Origin: Halorussus marinus
GTDB lineage: Archaea > Halobacteriota > Halobacteria > Halobacteriales > Haladaptataceae
Length of the DNA: 64,000 bases
Reading direction: 5' to 3'
NCBI RefSeq assembly: GCF_004765795.1
Contig: NZ_SBIV01000008.1
Location: 1-64,000 of the forward strand
In this document: positions 570 through 49,021 of the stretch, one piece after another
How the letters are laid out: each line of letters opens with the position of its first letter
Position numbering within the stretch: position 1 is the stretch's first letter
Program-made: the position numbers and the translations under genes
The notes under the pieces: generated by a model
The model's database searches: none
Told to the model about the DNA's origin: nothing
The model's input: only the letters and a program-made list of their open reading frames with translations

Positions 570-2390
570 ATGTGTGGTATCATCGCCCGTATCGGCGGTA
601 ACGACGGCGCGGTCGACGAGTTGCTCACCGGACTCGAGAACCTCGAGTACCGGGGGTACGACTCGGCCGGGCTGGCGGTAAAGAACGGTAGCGGACCCGA
701 AGTGGTCAAACGCGAGGGCGAGATCTCCCACCTGAAGGAGGCTCTCGCCGACGAGGTGCCAGACGGCGGCCTCGGCATCGGTCACACGCGGTGGTCGACC
801 CACGGGCCGCCGACAGATGCCAACGCCCACCCCCACACCGACTGCACCGGCGACGTCGCGATCGTCCACAACGGAATCATCGAGAACTACGACGAGCTCA
901 AATCCGAACTCGCCGACCGCGGCCACGAGTTCACGAGCGACACCGACACCGAGGTCGTCCCCCACCTCGTCGAGGAGGCGCTCGACGACGGTGACGACCC
1001 CGAGACCGCGTTTCGGCGGACTATCGAGAAGCTGTCGGGGAGCTACGCCGTGGCGATGATCACCAGCCACGACCACGCGGTGTACGCGACCCGTCGGGGG
1101 TCGCCGCTGGTGTTGGGCGTCAGCGACGGCGAGTACTTCCTCGCGAGCGACGTGCCCGCGTTCCTCGATTTCACCGACGACGTCGTCTACCTCGACGACG
1201 GCGACGTGGTCGTCGTCGAGCCCGACGGCCACCGGATCACGAGCGCCGACGGCGAGCGGGTCGACCGGGCGATCCGGACGGTCGACTGGGACCCCGAAGA
1301 CGCCGGGAAAGGCGGCTACGACCACTACATGCTCAAGGAGATCCACGAACAGCCCGCCGCGCTCCGCCAGACCCTCCGCGGGCGGGCCGACCCCGCGACC
1401 GGCGAGATCCACCTCGAAGACTTCCCGCCGGGGACCTTCGAGGGCGTGAAGCGGGTCCAGTTCGTCGCCTGTGGCACCTCGTACCACGCGGGGCTGGTCG
1501 GCGCCCAGTTCCTCTCCGAAGGCGGCGTCCCGGCCCAGGCGTTTCTCGCCAGCGAATACGCGACCGCACAGCCACCCGTCGACGAGGAGACGCTGGTGAT
1601 CGGCGTGACCCAGAGCGGCGAGACCGCCGACACGCTGGCGGCCCTGCGGCAGGCCACCGCCAGCGGGGCGCCGACGCTCGCGGTCACGAACGTCGTCGGT
1701 TCGACCGCCGCACGGGAGTGTGACGACGCGCTGTTCATCCGCGCGGGCCCCGAGATCGGCGTCGCCGCGACCAAGACGTTCTCCTCGCAGGTGGTGTCGC
1801 TGGCGCTGCTCGGCGAGCGACTCGTCCGGGACGTGACCGGCACCCGGACCGACGGCGCGCGCGAGCGCCTCGAGGCACTCTCGGAGCTACCGGGCCACGT
1901 CCAGCAGATCCTCGATTACACGAGCGCCCGACGGGTCGCCGCGGAGTACCGCGACAGCGACGCCTACTTCTTCATCGGTCGCGGATCGGTGTTCCCGGTC
2001 GCCCTGGAGGGCGCGCTGAAGTTCAAGGAGATCTCCTACGAGCACGCCGAGGGGTTCGCGGCCGGCGAACTCAAGCACGGGCCGCTCGCGCTGGTGACCC
2101 CCGACACCCCGGTCTTCGCGGTGTTCACCGGTCGGAACGACGAGAAGACGCTGGGCAACGTCAAGGAGGCCGAGGCGCGGGGCGCGCCCGTGGTCGCGAT
2201 CGCCCGCGGCGACGCCGACGGCGCCCGCCAGTACGCCGACGACGTGCTGACGATCCCGGACACCCATCCAGACGTGGCGGGCGTGCTGGCGAACGTCCAG
2301 CTCCAGTTGCTGTCGTACTACGCCGCCGACCTGCTCGATCGACCGATCGACAAGCCGAGAAACCTCGCGAAGAGCGTCACCGTCGAGTAG
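570..2390 (+). CDS. glmS: Glutamine--fructose-6-phosphate transaminase (isomerizing)
   Basis: N-terminal MCGI, LEYRGYDSAG, GHTRWSTHG, SQSGET-like (TQSGETAD), C-terminal PRNLAKSVTVE. Confidence 0.97.
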   Translation: MCGIIARIGGNDGAVDELLTGLENLEYRGYDSAGLAVKNGSGPEVVKREGEISHLKEALADEVPDGGLGIGHTRWSTHGPPTDANAHPHTDCTGDVAIVHNGIIENYDELKSELADRGHEFTSDTDTEVVPHLVEEALDDGDDPETAFRRTIEKLSGSYAVAMITSHDHAVYATRRGSPLVLGVSDGEYFLASDVPAFLDFTDDVVYLDDGDVVVVEPDGHRITSADGERVDRAIRTVDWDPEDAGKGGYDHYMLKEIHEQPAALRQTLRGRADPATGEIHLEDFPPGTFEGVKRVQFVACGTSYHAGLVGAQFLSEGGVPAQAFLASEYATAQPPVDEETLVIGVTQSGETADTLAALRQATASGAPTLAVTNVVGSTAARECDDALFIRAGPEIGVAATKTFSSQVVSLALLGERLVRDVTGTRTDGARERLEALSELPGHVQQILDYTSARRVAAEYRDSDAYFFIGRGSVFPVALEGALKFKEISYEHAEGFAAGELKHGPLALVTPDTPVFAVFTGRNDEKTLGNVKEAEARGAPVVAIARGDADGARQYADDVLTIPDTHPDVAGVLANVQLQLLSYYAADLLDRPIDKPRNLAKSVTVE

Positions 2391-2469
2391 GAAACACCCG
2401 ATTACCGTGGAGAACGCTTCTGAACGGTCGGACCGATTTACTCGCCGAGGCTCCGATAGATTCGCTACG

Positions 2470-3417
2470 ATGGGGTCTGTCGTACTCTCGCTCGATGCGG
2501 AACTCGCGTGGGGCTTCCACGATCACGACGAACTGGCCGAGGACCGGGTCTCGGCGGCTCGCGAGTCGTGGCTCGGGCTGTTGGAACTGTTCGACGACTT
2601 CGACGTGCCCGCGACGTGGGCCGTGGTAGGCCACCTCATGCTCGACAGTTGCGACGGCGAGCACGCCGGCCACCCGACCCCCGACGGCTGGTTCGAGCGC
2701 GACCCCGGGAGCTGGGAGGGCCGCGACGACCGGTGGTACGGCTCGAAGCTGGTCGACGCGATCGAGGCCGCCGACGCGGACCACGAGATCGGGAGCCACA
2801 CCTTCTCGCACGTCGAGTTCGGGCACACGACCCGCGAGATCGCCGCCGCCGAGATGCGCGAGTGCGTCGAGATCGCCGAGGACCGCGGCAGTTCGGTCGA
2901 CTCGGTCGTCTTCCCCCGAAACTACGTCGGTCACCGGGACGTGCTTGCGGCCTACGGCGTCACGTCCTACCGAGGGACCAAACCCAGACGGTGGTACGAC
3001 CGCGGCCCGCTCGGGTCGGCCGCGAAGCTCCTGGGCTGGCCGACCGGCGCGGTCTCGCCCACGATGGTCATCCCGGAGATCGACGAGTACGGACTGGTGA
3101 ACGTGCCGGCGTCGCTCTACCTGTTCGGCTTCGAGGGGCGAGCGCGCTCGGCGGTCGAACGGGCGACCGGCGATCCGGTCGTCGAGATGGCCCGCCGAGG
3201 TATCGACCGGGCGTCGACCGGCGACGGCGTGTTCCACATGTGGCTCCATCCGAACAACCTGACCGACGAGCGGGACTTCGACCGGATGAGGGCGATCCTC
3301 GAACACCTCGCCGCGGTCCGAGACCGGACGCCGCTCACCGTCGAGACGATGGGCGAGATCGCCGCGGACCTCAAAGACGACGAGCCCCTGCCGCGCGAGC
3401 CGATCGGCCCCCGGTAA
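2470..3417 (+). CDS. Polysaccharide deacetylase family protein
   Basis: SLDAELAWG, PATWAVVG, HEIGSHTFSH, VFPRN and HMWLHP motifs; alternative GTG start at 2407. Confidence 0.85.
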   Translation: MGSVVLSLDAELAWGFHDHDELAEDRVSAARESWLGLLELFDDFDVPATWAVVGHLMLDSCDGEHAGHPTPDGWFERDPGSWEGRDDRWYGSKLVDAIEAADADHEIGSHTFSHVEFGHTTREIAAAEMRECVEIAEDRGSSVDSVVFPRNYVGHRDVLAAYGVTSYRGTKPRRWYDRGPLGSAAKLLGWPTGAVSPTMVIPEIDEYGLVNVPASLYLFGFEGRARSAVERATGDPVVEMARRGIDRASTGDGVFHMWLHPNNLTDERDFDRMRAILEHLAAVRDRTPLTVETMGEIAADLKDDEPLPREPIGPR

Positions 3418-3519: not shown

Positions 3520-3604
3520 CGGAAGGGGCGGGAGTCGAACCACGCGAAGCCTGTCGGGCTGCCACCGGAAAACCGGTGGCGCTCTACCACTGAGCTACCC
3601 TTCC
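3520..3604 (-). ncRNA. tRNA-like RNA / atypical tRNA with non-canonical anticodon arm
   Basis: Reverse complement folds as GGAAGGG/CCCTTCC acceptor, GCTC-AGTGGTA-GAGC D arm, CCACC-GGTTTTCC-GGTGG anticodon arm, AGCC-CGACA-GGCT variable arm, GCG(T)GG-TTCGACT-CCCGC T arm, discriminator G. Confidence 0.75.
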
Positions 3605-3727
3605 ACGGTCGTCAGTTCGTATCGCGGTGTCTTTGTCATGTTTAGCGCGGACGGAAGTAACCGTTTCGCTACGTTTGGGGATCGCGGGCGTCCGCTCTGT
3701 ATCGGTGGGGCGACGAGCGGTGGGCCC

Positions 3728-4582
3728 TCAGGTGTTGACCGACTCGATGCGGTCGCTGACGACCAACTGCCCCTGCGCGGTCAGCGACACGCCCTTCTGG
3801 CCCTCCTCGATTAGCCCCTCGTCCGTGAGGTCGTTGAGGACCATCGTGACCTGACTCGAGTCGAGCCCCAACATCCCGGCGAGGTCCCCGCTGGTCGCGC
3901 CGGAGTAGATAGCGACCAGCGCCTCCATCGCGTCCTCCGAGAGCTCGACGTCTTCGACCTCGCGGGCGAGTTCGGAGTACTCCAGCCGGAGGTATCGGCC
4001 GAGCAGGTTGAGTTTGCGCTCGCTCTGGAGCGTAAACTCCGAGGTGACCGACTGGCCCTCCTCGGCGTGGCGCAACACGATCACCTGCTCGCTCTCACGT
4101 TCTTCTTTCTGGAAGTAGGTGACGTTGGCGAGCTCGACGGTCATCGATCCGGGTCCCTCGAACCGGACCGTTCCGGGCGCGATCCGGAGCTTGGCGGGGC
4201 GAAACGTCGCGTCGGTCACTCGACCGCCCACCCGAGCGGGGTGTTTGACTTTCGCCTTCGATCCGGTGAGCTCGGCCTTGAACAAGACGGTCTTGAACCG
4301 CGAGACCTCCTCGGAGCCAGCCTCGACGACCGCCGTCCGCCGGGCGTCGCCGTCACGGTACGCGATCGTGATGGTGTCTTGAAAGAACGATTCGAGGTCG
4401 CCGGGGACGTGGCCGACGTTGACGTCGAAGATCGCCGTGAGGGGGATCGTGGTCTTGGAGTCGTCGGTCGCCATCACCAGCCGCTTTTTGCTCAACACGA
4501 TGCGACCCCGGACGGGCTCGGGGGTGTCGAACGTGTCGAGGGTGAAGCGCGCGACGAAGTCGGCGATGACCTTTTCGGACAT
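3728..4582 (-). CDS. cheF: CheF family chemotaxis adaptor (CheY-to-archaellum), C-terminal HTH
   Basis: MSEKVIADFVARF, PVRGRIVLSKKRLV, HPARVGGRVTD; adjacent to arlJ. Confidence 0.85.
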   Translation of the reverse strand: MSEKVIADFVARFTLDTFDTPEPVRGRIVLSKKRLVMATDDSKTTIPLTAIFDVNVGHVPGDLESFFQDTITIAYRDGDARRTAVVEAGSEEVSRFKTVLFKAELTGSKAKVKHPARVGGRVTDATFRPAKLRIAPGTVRFEGPGSMTVELANVTYFQKEERESEQVIVLRHAEEGQSVTSEFTLQSERKLNLLGRYLRLEYSELAREVEDVELSEDAMEALVAIYSGATSGDLAGMLGLDSSQVTMVLNDLTDEGLIEEGQKGVSLTAQGQLVVSDRIESVNT

Positions 4583-4665
4583 GGTTGGTCGAGACCCGGC
4601 GAGTCGGCCGTCTCGTTGGACGGACATTCGAACAGGATGTACATATTTTTTCGGTTCGCCGCCGG

Positions 4666-6393
4666 TCAGACGTTCAGGAACGAGCCCACGACGAACTGAG
4701 TGAACACCGCGATCACGCTCGACACCCAGGTCAACAACACGTAGTGGACGTAGGTGTTGACCTTGTGACCGCCGTCGGCGATCCGGATCATCAGCGACGA
4801 CAGGATGGAGTTGAGCAGGATAATAATCAACAACAGGTATTCGATGGTCTGGATATCGTACACCTCAGTGTGGATGATGGTGCCGAAGTCGAACTGTGCG
4901 GTATTCAGTCCGATCGACATCCCTGCCAGCACATCGACGATTTCGAGTCCGATGAAAAAGGCAAACGTCGACGCCGCCGTGATGCCGTAGAGGACGCCGA
5001 TGAGCGTCACCGTCGACTGGGTGCGCCGCTCCCGGAGTTGAAGCACCTCGTTCATGTTACTCGAGATGAGCTCGCCCAGCTTCTTCGGATCGCCACCCAT
5101 CTGGCGGCCGATCAGGAACATCTCGCTGAACTTCTGGATGAGGTACGACCGCGACTCGGCCGTGAAGTGGCGCCACGCCAGTTCCGCTTCGATCCGCATG
5201 TTGAGCCGCTTGTAGAGGTCGTCGACGTTGTCGGTCAGCGCGCCGAAGTTCTTGCCGCGCAGGCTCTCGAGAACTTTCGTCGTCGTGCTCTGTTTCGCGG
5301 TCTCGGTCGCGCCGAGCGCCCGGATGAAGCTGGTGAACTCCTCGTCGCGCTCCTTGATCTCCTCTTCTTCGCTCCGGACGACGATACCCGGGATCAAAAG
5401 CGGCGTGGTCGGGATCGCGGCGAAGAACGGCAGCGGGATCGAGTCGGGGTCGATGCCGGTCTGGCCCATCAACACCAGCAGACAGACGGCGATAGCCACG
5501 AGCGTGAGCACCACGCCGACCGCGACGGCGATGCGAATCCGCCACTCCGAGCCGGTCGTCCGGTGCTCGGGGTGAAACCACACCGGATCGTACGGGGCGG
5601 TGTTCCGGATCAGCAGCAGGAAACCCGTCTGAACGAACGCGAACAGCAATACAACGGCTCCGACCGTCATCGTCGGGTTCGTACCGGTCAGGATGGGCAG
5701 AACCGTAGCGAACACGAGCGCGAACGTCACCGAGAGCACCATCGAGAGGTAGAGGTCTTTCATCACTTCGAGGTTCTGAAGCGAACCCTCGTAGATCGTG
5801 ACGTAGTTTTGGATGACCACGTCCTGCTCGCTCAGCAGAAAGTCCTGGATCTCCTGGCCGGCGTTGATGGTGTAGGCGAGGCGGTCGAGGAAGTCGGCGA
5901 ACGGCTTGCTCGGTGACTTGTCCGCTCGGATTCGGAGCGCGTCGTCGAGGCTCTGATTCCAGGTGTCGACCAGTTGCGTTATCCGGCGCATCTCCTCGGA
6001 GAGCGCGCCGTACTCCTCTTCCTCACCGAGCGTCCGGAACACCTCGACGCGGTCGATGTTCGCGGTCGAGAGGATCGTCATGTGGGTGATAAACAGGTGA
6101 AGGCGATCCTCGATCTCCTTGCGCTTCTGATCGCGCAGGATCTTGGGGTAGATGACCGCGACGACCAGCGCGAGCGTTCCGAGCAGCGGAATCGGCACCG
6201 AGACGAGTAGGGGAAAGTCGGTGATGACGAAGACCGCGACGCTGAGCACGAAAAACAGGATCGACGGCCCGACGACCACCGCGAGGTACCGGGAGACTGG
6301 CGTCTCCATCTGCTGGTAGGACTCGACCGTCGAGGAGGCGAAGCCTGCGAGGAGGTCTTTCGCGTTCGACGCGGGTTGTTCGGTGCCTGCCAT
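4666..6393 (-). CDS. flaJ: Archaellar assembly membrane platform protein ArlJ/FlaJ
   Basis: Multi-TM T2SS-F-like protein, LVDTWNQSLDDA motif, operon context. Confidence 0.92.
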   Translation of the reverse strand: MAGTEQPASNAKDLLAGFASSTVESYQQMETPVSRYLAVVVGPSILFFVLSVAVFVITDFPLLVSVPIPLLGTLALVVAVIYPKILRDQKRKEIEDRLHLFITHMTILSTANIDRVEVFRTLGEEEEYGALSEEMRRITQLVDTWNQSLDDALRIRADKSPSKPFADFLDRLAYTINAGQEIQDFLLSEQDVVIQNYVTIYEGSLQNLEVMKDLYLSMVLSVTFALVFATVLPILTGTNPTMTVGAVVLLFAFVQTGFLLLIRNTAPYDPVWFHPEHRTTGSEWRIRIAVAVGVVLTLVAIAVCLLVLMGQTGIDPDSIPLPFFAAIPTTPLLIPGIVVRSEEEEIKERDEEFTSFIRALGATETAKQSTTTKVLESLRGKNFGALTDNVDDLYKRLNMRIEAELAWRHFTAESRSYLIQKFSEMFLIGRQMGGDPKKLGELISSNMNEVLQLRERRTQSTVTLIGVLYGITAASTFAFFIGLEIVDVLAGMSIGLNTAQFDFGTIIHTEVYDIQTIEYLLLIIILLNSILSSLMIRIADGGHKVNTYVHYVLLTWVSSVIAVFTQFVVGSFLNV

Positions 6394-6543: not shown

Positions 6544-8325
6544 CTAGTCGAACGACCGGTGGATGTCGAACGGGAGCCCATCGACGCCGTCGCGCTGGAA
6601 CGCCTCGATGGCTTCGTTGACCTCGTGGTAGCCGAGGATGTTCTCCTCGATCATGCGCTCGAACAGCTCCGCCCGGAAATCGAGTTCGTTGTAGATGTCG
6701 CGGGTGTTCTCGTACCCGAGCAGGGTCGCGATCTGCTCTTCGAGCACGAAGGAGTTGTTCATCCCCTGGAAGACGATCTCGTCCTCGACGGGGTCCCAGT
6801 AGAACGCCTGTCGGGTGACGACCCCGCCCATCTCCTTCGAGTAGCCCTCGATCTCCTGGACCGACGTGACCCGGCGCAACACGTCGTCGCCCTGCTTGAC
6901 GCGGTTCTGGAACAGCGCGACGTCGGCGTTGTCCATGAACGTCTCGGGGATGTTGATCGGGTCGCCGGTGAACCGCTGGATCATCGAGACGATGTCGCTC
7001 GCGTGGAACGTCAGCATCACTGGGTGGCCGGTCTGGGCCGCCTGGAACGCCATTCGACCCTCCTCGCCACGCACCTCCCCGACGATGATGTAGTCGGGGC
7101 GCGACCGGAGCGCGGCCGCGACGAGGTCGAACATGTCGACGTCCGAGGAATCCTCGCCGCCGCCCTCCCGAGTGAGCAACTGCTGCCAGGTGTCGTGGGG
7201 CGGCAGGACCTCGGCGGTGTCCTCCGCGGTGTAGATCTTCGAGTCCCGCGGGATGAACGACATGATACAGTTCAGCGTCGTCGTCTTCCCGGACGCCGTC
7301 TCCCCGACGACGAACACGGTCTGTTCGTTCTCCAGACAGAGCCAGAGGTACGCCGCCAGCTTCGGCGACAGCGTCCCCCACTTGGTAATCTGGGCGACCG
7401 ACAGCGGCGTACCCTCGCCCTGCCGGATGGTGAGGCTCGGGCCCTTCAGGCTCACGTCGTCGGAGTAGATGATGTTGATACGCGACCCGTCGGGCAGCGT
7501 CGAGTCGACGATGGGGTCGGAGTCAGAAACCGGGTCGCCGATGCGTTCGCCCATGTTTCGGAGCCAGTTGTCGAACTGCTCGGGCGTCCCGAAGTCGACG
7601 CTGGTTCCCAACATCCCGAACGTGCCGTGGTCGACGTACGTCTCGTGGGGGCCGATGACGTGAATGTCCTCGTTTGCGGGGTCGCGCATGATGGGTTCGA
7701 GCGGCCCGAACCCCACGATGTCGCGGTTCAGCCGATACCGGATGTTCTCGTAGGTCTGCTCGGAGACCTCGTAGGTGCCGATGTTCGTCAGCTCTTTGAC
7801 CGTTCGGACGACGTCCTCGGTCGAGAACGACCGGACGCCCTGCTTGAAGTCGTTGTACGAGACTTCCTTGATCCACTGGAGGATCTCCTGGGGCGAGAGG
7901 TTGGTGACGCTTCGGCCCGCGCCCCCGTCGCCGTCGTTGATCGCGACCGTTTCGTCGAGCAACTCCTCGATGCGGTCGTCGTACTCGGACTCGTTTGCGG
8001 GCGCGGGCTTGTTCACACTCCGTTCGAGGATCTGACTCCGAACGTTGCCGAACAGCTCTTGTTCGGTCCCCGAGAGGTCGGGCTCGACCGCGTAGTACTC
8101 GGTGTCCTGACCCACGTCGCCGTAGATGTGACAGTAGATGGGACCGCCGACGGGGTAGATCACGTTCGGCTTGTCGGCCTCCCACTCGTCGGAGGGTTCG
8201 TCGATGAGTCGGGGGAACTCCCCGGTGAACTGCTTGAACCGCTTGAGGTAGTCCCGCAGGTGGGGCCGGCGCATGGCGACTTCCCGAAGGTCGTCTTGAA
8301 TCTGTGCGGTCCCGTGTTCGGTCAT
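6544..8325 (-). CDS. flaI: Archaellum motor ATPase ArlI/FlaI
   Basis: Walker A GETASGKTT, LRSRPDYIIVGEVRG, QTGH His box. Confidence 0.95.
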   Translation of the reverse strand: MTEHGTAQIQDDLREVAMRRPHLRDYLKRFKQFTGEFPRLIDEPSDEWEADKPNVIYPVGGPIYCHIYGDVGQDTEYYAVEPDLSGTEQELFGNVRSQILERSVNKPAPANESEYDDRIEELLDETVAINDGDGGAGRSVTNLSPQEILQWIKEVSYNDFKQGVRSFSTEDVVRTVKELTNIGTYEVSEQTYENIRYRLNRDIVGFGPLEPIMRDPANEDIHVIGPHETYVDHGTFGMLGTSVDFGTPEQFDNWLRNMGERIGDPVSDSDPIVDSTLPDGSRINIIYSDDVSLKGPSLTIRQGEGTPLSVAQITKWGTLSPKLAAYLWLCLENEQTVFVVGETASGKTTTLNCIMSFIPRDSKIYTAEDTAEVLPPHDTWQQLLTREGGGEDSSDVDMFDLVAAALRSRPDYIIVGEVRGEEGRMAFQAAQTGHPVMLTFHASDIVSMIQRFTGDPINIPETFMDNADVALFQNRVKQGDDVLRRVTSVQEIEGYSKEMGGVVTRQAFYWDPVEDEIVFQGMNNSFVLEEQIATLLGYENTRDIYNELDFRAELFERMIEENILGYHEVNEAIEAFQRDGVDGLPFDIHRSFD

Positions 8326-48471: not shown

Positions 48472-48936
48472 TCAATCACCGGTTTCGCCGTCCCTCGCCC
48501 GCTTTCGCGCGGTCAGCGGCTGGCGGCGGGCCAGCTCGCAGTCGAACGCGGGATGCTCGGCGAAGTGGTGGACGAGCATGTGGCGCCGGCCGCCGGTCAG
48601 GCCGGGCCGACCCACGTCCTCGGCGGTGAACGTTCGAGGCAGTCGGTCGTAGAACCGACGCAGTTCCTCGAAGCTCTCGAACACCTTCCGGTGGCCCGAC
48701 GAGTCCGCTCGCGAGCGCGCGACGACGTAGCTACCGTCCTCGCGGTGCTCGCCCGCCGTCTGCTCGAACGCCCGGCGCTCGGTCAGCGCCTCGCCGAGCG
48801 CGGTCCGAAGCCGATCGGCCTCGGCTCTGGTGAGGTCGTGCGTCTCGCCCGCGAGCGTGACCGCGACGCGGTCGGCGTCGACGTTACGTTCGGCGCGGAA
48901 TTTCTCGATCAGCCGCCGGCTGGCGACTTCCCCTAT
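48472..48936 (-). CDS. Conserved hypothetical protein; start uncertain, possibly non-canonical
   Basis: Frame open from ~48969 to 48472 (GEHREDGSYVVARS...FTAEDVG...HFAEHPAFDC); first canonical start only at GTG 48684. Confidence 0.6.
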   Translation of the reverse strand: MGEVASRRLIEKFRAERNVDADRVAVTLAGETHDLTRAEADRLRTALGEALTERRAFEQTAGEHREDGSYVVARSRADSSGHRKVFESFEELRRFYDRLPRTFTAEDVGRPGLTGGRRHMLVHHFAEHPAFDCELARRQPLTARKRARDGETGD

Positions 48937-49021
48937 CCTCCGGGTCCCCGGGCGACGAAGGTCGTGGCGTCATGTGAGAGTCGATACGCACCGCCCCAAC
49001 ATAAGCGTCGGGGCGGTCCGG

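Follow-up and report, generated by a model that had tools for sequence, protein, structure and literature searches.

The 64,000-nucleotide (nt) stretch of DNA analysed here (the window) comprises positions 1 to 64,000 of contig NZ_SBIV01000008.1 of Halorussus marinus, and it carries, on its reverse strand, a small gene for an RNA that has the fold of a transfer RNA (tRNA) and no anticodon loop. This gene is a member of a structurally constrained, non-decoding tRNA-like RNA gene family of the Halobacteriales. No anticodon is conserved in the family, and the RNA therefore cannot decode. Nor is it the outcome of random decay: its stems persist throughout an archaeal order and show compensatory changes. 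That it is a real and functional non-decoding RNA can be stated with high confidence. As for its function, a serine-accepting carrier or mimic ranks first among the explanations considered, an uncharged decoy or regulator comes close behind, and a recombination anchor and a processing signal are of lesser weight.

An earlier note on this DNA, made from the letters alone, had described a tRNA fold with a disabled anticodon loop. Sequence and fold bear this out in every part: the stems, the GG of the D loop, the TTCGA T loop, the zipped anticodon arm, the long variable arm and the bulged U are all present (Table 1). U8 is found as well, the acceptor stem contains the pairs G1-C72, G2-C71 and A3-U70, and the discriminator is G. 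The minimum-energy fold is the cloverleaf; its energy is -45 kcal/mol (z = -4.28), a stability reached by 0 of 200 shuffled sequences, and in it the anticodon arm has 8 base pairs (bp), G26-C44 included, under a UUUU cap. A decoding tRNA would have a 5-bp anticodon stem, a 7-nt loop, U33 and a conserved anticodon, and the gene fails on this account, with a stem of 7-8 bp and a UUUU loop. ARAGORN reports "tRNA-???" with a two-letter anticodon (tt), an undetermined call. The Rfam tRNA model, RF00005, recognises the gene with 43.2 bits against a gathering score of 29. The ordinary tRNAs of the Halorussus marinus genome form a full decoding set without it. A covariance model of the family gives the RNA 110.3 bits in its own genome and the best real tRNA 37.2 bits, and the gene is present in a single copy.

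Table 1. Features of the window and their positions (the mature RNA reads from 3604 down to 3520)
Feature	Position	Strand	Remarks
Anticodon-less tRNA-like RNA gene, 85 nt	3520..3604	-	mature 5′ end at 3604; discriminator G at 3520
Acceptor stem, 5′ strand GGAAGGG	3598..3604	-	pairs with 3521-3527 (CCCUUCC), 7 bp
D arm GCUC-AGUGGUA-GAGC	3581..3595	-	4-bp stem; G18 and G19 present
Hairpin CCACCGG-UUUU-CCGGUGG in place of the anticodon arm	3562..3579	-	without 7-nt loop and without U33
Variable-arm hairpin AGCC-CGACA-GGCU	3548..3560	-	1 nt 5′ of the hairpin, 2 nt (UC) 3′
T arm GCG-U-GG UUCGACU CC-CGC	3528..3545	-	the stem has a bulged U at 3542, on its 5′ side
Upstream box ATGACAAAG	3631..3639	-	35 to 27 nt 5′ of the RNA start; probable archaeal TATA/BRE-type promoter element
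glmS (glutamine-fructose-6-phosphate aminotransferase)	570..2390	+	Pfam SIS and GATase; same order in a congener
Polysaccharide deacetylase-family gene	2407..3417	+	Pfam PF01522; convergent with the RNA gene; same neighbour in a congener (L211)
cheF-type gene	3728..4627	-	Pfam CheF-arch; ends 123 nt upstream of the RNA gene
arlJ	4666-6393	-	Pfam T2SSF; upstream of cheF, same strand as the RNA
arlI	6544-8325	-	Pfam T2SSE; upstream of arlJ, same strand as the RNA
leuA-Halobacteria cis-regulatory RNA	48895-48947	-	53.2 bits, above the gathering score

The strongest evidence that the gene is maintained comes from its relatives. BLAST over 34 other genomes of the window's GTDB family returned full-length homologs, 84-95% identical, in 32; of the remaining two, one yielded nothing and the other weak matches only. 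The resulting alignment holds 30 loci, corresponding to 29 distinct sequences. The DNA flanking these loci is unalignable, in contrast to the gene itself, where acceptor stem, D arm and T arm hardly vary at all (all 29 distinct f1 sequences share the 5′ acceptor strand). The loop of the "anticodon" hairpin varies both in sequence and in length (3-6 nt), in some members it is a UUUU or UUCG tetraloop, and in other families the hairpin reaches up to ~45 nt. The upper stem of the same hairpin shows the compensating pairs GG/CC, GA/UC, AA/UU and AUCGG/CCGAU. Over the 29 distinct sequences, pairing is kept in 99.5% of cells, and only three pairs have changed on both sides, all of them in the replaced anticodon stem. 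Given these orthologs, ARAGORN proposes Glu, Arg, Lys, Gln, "anticodons" of two or four letters, or nothing, that is, nine different ones or none.

A second set of sequences comprises 99 model-aligned sequences (92 distinct), none of which was used in building the model. The 5′ 24 nt of this set are fixed by the search pattern, so that the acceptor and D stems are informative through their 3′ strands only; the 3′ strand of the acceptor pairs in 92 of the 92 distinct sequences. Covariation extends to each of the 7 pairs of the replaced anticodon stem and to the T pair 50-64, which is C-G in 54 sequences and U-A in 37; the corresponding score is 0.210, compared with 0.084 ± 0.004 in shuffles and at most 0.057 for slid partners. 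The earlier note had argued from the intact stems against random decay and had proposed a search for covarying homologs in relatives: such homologs exist, and the conservation across the order, together with the compensatory changes, strengthens the argument.

Could the gene be a decaying tRNA pseudogene, or a tRNA-like fold that arose by chance? The missing anticodon and the "???" of ARAGORN are what such a reading would predict. The conservation data refute it and leave it practically no chance: covarying members of the family are carried by 56 of 151 genomes of the order, the gene keeps its 84-95% identity amid flanks that do not align, and its fold has a z value of -4.28.

Three further identities were considered and rejected. 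Apart from the general tRNA model, the sole Rfam match to the RNA is DUF3800-VII, at 18.7 bits against a threshold of 36.2; this sub-threshold match is attributed to chance, DUF3800-VII being found in 0 of 61 Halobacteriales genomes (no control genome matched either). An archaeal intron is rejected as well, given that the gene offers no bulges for a bulge-helix-bulge motif and that its stems abut directly. Lastly, the second hairpin might be taken for the true anticodon arm, with the loop CUUACAG, which would read Val. This hairpin is absent in 67 of 153 members; its loop is variable (UUAC, UGAC, CGAC, UGAU, UCAC, GUUC, UUUC) and is a tetraloop in family f8.

How widespread is the family? A covariance model made from the family alignment was searched against 151 Halobacteriales genomes from 18 families, and a genome was tallied as a carrier, by hand count, when its best match had E <= 1e-6, the tRNA-Ser look-alikes of genus g8 being excluded. 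Members of the RNA family are present in 56 of the 151 genomes and in 7 of the 18 families: f1 (12 of 13 genomes), f2 (6 of 13), f6 (3 of 13), f8 (10 of 10), f13 (13 of 13), f17 (1 of 1) and f18 (11 of 12). In the other 11 families the same model found nothing but ordinary tRNAs. Two borderline matches (L076 and L077) were inspected and are true tRNA-Ser; the remaining g8 matches, which have the same length and score, were taken as tRNA-Ser too. Beyond the order, 123 further genomes of the phylum gave matches with E <= 1e-7 to genuine tRNA-Ser only, in one family of small-genome archaea. For 19 + 21 loci found with the model, the GGAAGGG-type acceptor was confirmed as well. A scan of species-representative genomes with an exact pattern produced at least 111 loci. 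Among the matches listed are the genera Halorussus, Haladaptatus, Natrinema, Natronococcus, Natrialba, Halobiforma, Haloarcula, Halorientalis, Halomicrobium, Haloferax, Halobellus, Halogranum, Salinigranum, Halalkalicoccus and Haloquadratum, together with others. A plasmid collection held one family member, on a Halorientalis plasmid and adjoining a cdc6 gene, and a phage collection held no match to the RNA. No description of the RNA was found in Rfam 15 or in the literature searched, which includes passages of a review of non-canonical tRNAs (PMC7609411) but not the 2012 list of 47 predicted H. volcanii tRNA-like elements. One match of the exact-pattern scan lay far from the archaea, on a contig of a Christensenellaceae metagenome-assembled genome (L123): it is AT-rich, tRNA-shaped and 117 nt long, with the acceptor GGAAGGG/CCCUUCC, a similar D arm, ~45 nt of unrelated sequence in the middle, no T bulge and no tRNA call by ARAGORN.

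The anatomy of the family was described on 153 distinct sequences of 72-117 nt, restricted to those that match the 5′ search pattern. The bulge in the T stem is present in all but 2 of them and comes in two forms, GCG-U-GG/CCCGC and GUGG-C-G/CCCAC; between the two, a C-G pair is exchanged for U-A, with compensation, and the bulge moves by one step. The discriminator is G in 108 sequences, A in 42, C in 2 and U in 1. Two types can be told apart. The short type (86 of 153; 79-100 nt), to which the window's RNA belongs, has a second hairpin that resembles a variable arm and adjoins the T stem, and its discriminator is G73 in 79 cases, A in 6 and C in 1. The 67 sequences without the second hairpin are mostly long forms with one big hairpin, and among them A73 occurs in 36 and G73 in 29. 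Several genomes carry one short and one long paralog. Both types retain a GGCUUC motif immediately before the T stem. In long members of the Haloarcula and Halorientalis type (L101, L102, L109, L112-L114, L162, L168-L170, L184) the loop of the big hairpin keeps the motif AUGCCAGA over a variable stem, which hints at a second, sequence-specific contact. A different anticodon-less tRNA-like gene, of 90 nt, was encountered in genomes G001 and G006 (L080:401-490 and L081:401-490); its acceptor is GAACGGG/CCCGUUC, it has no T-stem bulge, and in G006 it lies ~10 kb from another PF13480 gene.

A related question is how the RNA is made. A box of the form WTRACRAWG stands at -34 to -36 in 21 of the 30 family loci, the window included, the other families have AT-rich, TATA-like boxes at ~-30, and T-runs, putative terminators, follow the gene directly at its 3′ side in many relatives. 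The gene is thus presumably transcribed separately, as a small unit with its own promoter, as far as the sequence can tell. The table of transcription start sites from differential RNA sequencing of H. volcanii (PMC4983044 supplement, possibly partial) did not contain the promoter of the Haloferax-type homolog, its only match being the unrelated promoter of HVO_2767. At one relative (L030:1440-1502) a partial duplicate of the 5′ end of the gene (GGAACGGTAGCTCAGCGGT) lies directly upstream, and the promoter box is shifted from -35 to -54. As to maturation, RNase P and tRNase Z would cut the RNA out and CCA would then be added as in tRNA. This tRNA-type route is probable, because the RNA keeps exactly the parts that these enzymes read and its gene encodes no CCA. 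The RNA presumably acts through the top half of the tRNA shape.

The features that single out serine deserve particular attention. Counted as bases ahead of the variable arm, pairs in its stem, bases in its loop and bases behind it, the geometry of the RNA is 1-4-5-2; it follows the layout of the four chromosomal tRNA-Ser of the genome (1-4-4-2) and is unlike that of the genome's tRNA-Leu. G1-C72, G2-C71, A3-U70, C11-G24 and G73, all of which occur in the RNA, are serine determinants in bacteria. The genome encodes one seryl-tRNA synthetase (SerRS), which has the arm-binding N-terminal domain. Outside the Halobacteriales, the best matches of the family model are true tRNA-Ser. The last 21 nt of the RNA, written with R and M at two T-loop positions, were also searched for exact matches in IMG/VR. 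This 21-mer occurs in 29 contigs, all of them bacterial in GC range and context, and no haloarchaeal element matched. At 8 of the 29 a complete tRNA surrounds the match, always a tRNA-Ser; the 21 others have none, and most of them read as 3′ fragments of the kind that phages carry as attachment sites. In sequence, the acceptor stem and the T arm of the RNA accordingly correspond to those of a bacterial-type tRNA-Ser, apart from one additional base in the T stem. Passages of a review (PMC9976931) place serine identity in the variable arm and G73, with the anticodon ignored and G30-C40 as a weaker determinant, and have the T-stem pairs of tRNA-Sec reject EF-Tu. The Ser-like identity that the earlier note had read from the letters gains ground in two ways: the arm-bearing members combine the genome's own tRNA-Ser geometry with a G73 kept in 79 of 86, and the complete tRNAs carrying the 21-mer in IMG/VR are tRNA-Ser only. 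The subtype represented in the window looks like a serine-tRNA mimic.

The surroundings of the gene bring in the glycans of the cell surface. A single glmU-like gene is split between the left end of the window (C8:1) and the end of another contig (C9:129602), the assembly missing ~80 codons at the joint, and the gene order across C9 and C8 matches that of a congener assembled in one contig. To the left of the window, the sequence therefore continues with a che/arl block and a WbpABDE-type glycan cluster. The joined order is a WbpABDE-type amino-sugar cluster (GNAT, flippase, epimerase), che/arl, glmU, glmS, the deacetylase, the RNA, cheF, arlJ and arlI. For the same two reasons, the GNAT can be placed ~17.6 kb from the RNA. 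It is a 360-residue PF13480 (Acetyltransf_6) protein encoded on C9. FemAB proper (PF02388) was not found in the genome, the sole sub-threshold match being the PF13480 gene itself, and aminoacyl-phosphatidylglycerol synthase (PF09924) had no match in the genome. In Haladaptatus-type genomes an epimerase lies immediately upstream of the RNA and a flippase follows, and in family f8 the RNA sits inside a WbpABDE-type cluster, between a GT2 gene and an epimerase, 4.4 kb from a PF13480 GNAT. The cluster GNAT orthologs are 62-84% identical to one another. Against solved structures the GNAT gave no match by sequence, and NCBIfam gave weak FemAB-type matches only. Its AlphaFold model is of middling quality (7-row alignment; predicted local distance difference test, pLDDT, 66). 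The best Protein Data Bank matches of this model, whose E values start at 5e-11 and whose template-modelling (TM) scores are 0.40-0.47, are FemA, FemX (including the complex with peptidyl-RNA), the aminoacyl-tRNA-dependent peptide synthases Sba18 and Sbb17, and domains of MprF. On the strength of these modelled likenesses to Fem and MprF, the linked cluster encodes a plausible aminoacyl-tRNA transferase. A PF13480 gene was found within 30 kb of the RNA in at least 17 of the 56 carrier genomes (12 in f1, 3 in f8, 1 plasmid and 1 in f18, among the best 150 matches). Elsewhere in the genome two dense arrays of ~20 atypical tRNA genes each, with odd acceptor stems, occur on contigs C7 (~29-36 kb) and C11 (~67-75 kb); they look like virus- or plasmid-type tRNA clusters.

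Taken together, these features allow a pathway to be proposed. The single SerRS would charge the RNA, recognising it by its acceptor stem and serine-type arm. Lack of an anticodon loop would keep it out of translation, possibly helped by the T-stem bulge, which would lie on the elongation-factor-binding surface and may well disturb the contact with EF1A. The seryl-RNA would then hand its serine to a non-ribosomal acceptor, the obvious candidate enzyme being the Fem-fold GNAT of the adjacent surface-glycan cluster, which would attach it to an amino sugar or to some other acceptor in the envelope. Across the family the top half (the acceptor stem, the bulged T arm and the D arm with its elbow nucleotides) is nearly constant, and the former anticodon arm is a spacer hairpin of arbitrary length and loop. 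A comparable arrangement exists in staphylococci, where non-proteinogenic tRNA-Gly are the donors for FemXAB.

A number of observations weigh against this proposal. On the side of the transferase, a GNAT ortholog (E <= 1e-60) is present in 34 of the 56 genomes that bear the RNA and also in 22 of the 95 that lack it. In f7 it occurs in 12 of 13 genomes and the RNA in none, in f13 it occurs in 3 of 13 and the RNA in all 13, and one congener of the window's organism has the GNAT without the RNA. For PF13480 as a whole the counts are 54 of 56 RNA-bearing versus 40 of 95 RNA-lacking genomes; DegT, an aminotransferase of the same kind of cluster that was used as a control, gives 52 of 56 versus 50 of 95, so that the association at the level of genomes mostly reflects phylogeny and genome size. 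In genomes of the Haloferax, Haloarcula and Natrialbaceae types the RNA gene is not near glycan genes: it follows sdhA in the Haloferax type, stands between an amidohydrolase and an HVO_2718-like regulator in the Halomicrobium type, and adjoins DUF5784 or DUF7531 genes in the Natrialbaceae type. The proximity in f1 and f8 may also go back to one homologous cluster that carried the RNA gene along; tRNA-type genes often edge exchangeable islands. On the side of serine, pair 30-40 is C-G in the RNA and G-C in the genome's tRNA-Ser, and the D arm, with 4 bp and a 7-nt loop, resembles class I, the class with short variable arms. The serine-type arm is missing from 67 of 153 members, 36 of which have A73, and serine charging therefore cannot explain the whole family. 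Lastly, G73, the strongest serine determinant, is replaced by A in close relatives of the Halorussus and Haloferax types in which nothing else has changed. A side observation concerns the long paralog, which lies just downstream of sdhA and on the same strand in two different families (L052 and L060 in G149 and G169; L121, L147, L166 and L171 in Haloferax), a position that suggests old and vertical inheritance.

Where does this leave the carrier? A dedicated aminoacyl carrier is possible, not demonstrated; it can be called no more than that because the GNAT and the RNA do not co-occur consistently, the control gene behaves equally and G73 turns into A in close relatives. Of the linkage to Fem-like GNATs that the earlier note had suggested, the recurrence in two families of an amino-sugar/glycan cluster with a Fem-fold GNAT stands, and the tracking of the two genes across genomes does not. 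Charging of the RNA with serine is a tentative proposition, and the idea of a serine-charged carrier, taken as a whole, is to be treated with the same caution. The more specific step, in which the RNA donates serine to a Fem-like enzyme, is unlikely, and the complete scheme of a haloarchaeal anticodon-less seryl carrier, charged by SerRS, kept off EF1A and the ribosome and used by a Fem-fold GNAT, is to be viewed with corresponding doubt.

What else could the RNA be? It might be made and matured like a tRNA and remain uncharged. In that case it would be a decoy, a sponge or a sensor, and its target a protein that recognises the top half: candidates are SerRS and EF1A, enzymes that process or modify tRNA, and toxins or viral factors directed against tRNAs. 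The limitation of conservation to the top half fits well with this, and so does a purine discriminator that switches between G and A in close relatives: with 67 of 153 members devoid of the serine arm, a reader that does not need the full identity of an aminoacyl-tRNA synthetase suits the data. No neighbour of the gene is conserved across families, and a housekeeping partner is therefore likely; some genomes keep two paralogs, one short and one long, and the AUGCCAGA loop motif of the Haloarcula-type long forms could be a second binding site. Such a mimic leaves unexplained, however, why the serine-type arm and G73 are retained in the short forms (79 of 86) and why the short form travels with the glycan cluster in two families, and no candidate partner has been identified. 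Taken by itself a mimic of this kind is rather doubtful, and it stands about level with the carrier. Another possibility is that the tRNA shape does nothing except mark the cuts of RNase P and tRNase Z in a longer transcript, the target being the 3′ end of the upstream message (cheF, epimerase or GT2) or the RNA of a downstream cassette. A tRNA-like element (t-element) upstream of the 5S rRNA of H. volcanii, reportedly described by Hölzle et al. in 2008 and 2012, acts in this manner. The upstream open reading frame (ORF) is on the same strand in 13 of 15 Pfam-confirmed loci, or in ~6 of 8 independent contexts, and the top half alone suffices for these nucleases. Processing does not, however, require the constancy of the acceptor-stem sequence, which goes beyond shape; the promoter-like box stands at a fixed distance, T-runs directly follow the gene in relatives, and the neighbours differ between families. 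A processing signal is, for these reasons, highly improbable.

The remaining explanation operates at the level of DNA. The gene would be a look-alike of a tRNA gene that serves as a landing or crossover site for integrases, hairpin cassettes and the exchange of islands, and incoming elements with a copy of its 3′ end would hold its sequence constant. At 16 of the 30 family loci the gene is followed by 1-3 tandem gene-less hairpin cassettes of 110-260 nt (L004-L031, e.g., L007:1590-1760 and L019 downstream of 1501). Each cassette ends with a copy of the last 20-26 nt of the gene and some begin with GGAAGGG, and two cassette types, starting with TTTTGCGACGAAC or TTCTGCGAGGCG, recur across families. 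Besides these 3′-end copies, the position of the gene at the edge or in the middle of glycan clusters, which are hotspots of exchange in haloarchaea, the one plasmid copy beside cdc6 and the use of the same 3′ 21-mer as a phage attachment fragment in bacteria all agree with such a role. It does not account for the conserved 5′ half, for the promoter box at a fixed distance or for the compensatory changes in the middle hairpin. In addition, no integrase domain was detected among 50 flanking ORFs of 25 loci, and neither the window nor the rest of its genome contains a second copy of the 3′ end or any cassette. The position of the gene is syntenic within genera, and inheritance is therefore mostly vertical. 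A recombination anchor is thus quite unlikely, less so than a mere processing signal.

Among the non-decoding tRNA look-alikes, which come from a few bacteria, phages and animals, none was found described as a conserved archaeal chromosomal gene family. This one is widespread and easily recognised by its invariant acceptor stem, its bulged T stem and the lack of an anticodon loop, and since it occurs in tractable genera (there are named records for Haloferax, Haloarcula and Natrinema), a role of the tRNA top half is testable. If the RNA is charged, it would offer an example of tRNA-dependent non-ribosomal chemistry in archaea, together with natural recognition by SerRS in which no anticodon arm takes part; if it is not, it would be a new regulatory tRNA mimic. 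The seryl carrier, if true, would give archaea their first dedicated aminoacyl-tRNA pathway outside the ribosome, and no natural carrier tRNA wholly without an anticodon would have preceded it. There is a practical side as well: annotation pipelines will report these genes as undetermined or pseudo tRNAs, or give them random anticodons, as ARAGORN does with Glu, Arg, Lys or Gln for the orthologs.

A comparison with known systems puts the RNA in perspective. The staphylococcal tRNA-Gly are the nearest functional parallel to the proposed carrier: tRNA-shaped molecules that stay off the ribosome through altered elongation-factor contacts of the T arm, as may also be the case here, and that have a counterpart to FemXAB in the Fem-fold transferase encoded in the linked cluster. 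They keep, however, a normal anticodon loop and are charged by a GlyRS that reads the anticodon, whereas the RNA described here has no such loop, would carry serine, and differs from the transferase in its distribution across genomes. To class II tRNA-Ser (RF00005) it is tied by the variable-arm geometry, by G73, by the pairs G1-C72/G2-C71/A3-U70 and C11-G24, and by a 3′ 21-mer of bacterial type; it departs from tRNA-Ser in lacking the anticodon loop, in its 4-bp/7-nt D arm, in C30-G40 and in the extra T-stem base. tRNA-Sec and the allo-tRNAs share serine-type recognition independent of the anticodon, together with T-stem or acceptor features that reject the standard elongation factor. They nevertheless decode, through UCA or other anticodons, and have 9/4, 8/5 or 8/4 helices, where the present RNA has 7/5 plus a bulge and no anticodon. 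With the t-elements of Haloferax volcanii it has in common a haloarchaeal tRNA-like fold recognisable by tRNase Z; a t-element is part of an rRNA precursor, whereas this gene lies outside the rRNA operon, with a promoter box of its own and far higher sequence conservation. Finally, mascRNA, the YrlA Y-RNA modules and the tRNA-like stable RNAs of phages also have a lower half that does not decode beneath a conserved elbow and acceptor/T minihelix, and handling by RNase P, tRNase Z and the CCA enzyme would be expected for all of them. Unlike these, the haloarchaeal RNA is a stand-alone archaeal chromosomal gene with a promoter that appears to be its own, and it is set apart by an invariant acceptor, a serine-type arm and a constant T-stem bulge, with the general tRNA model as its only Rfam match.

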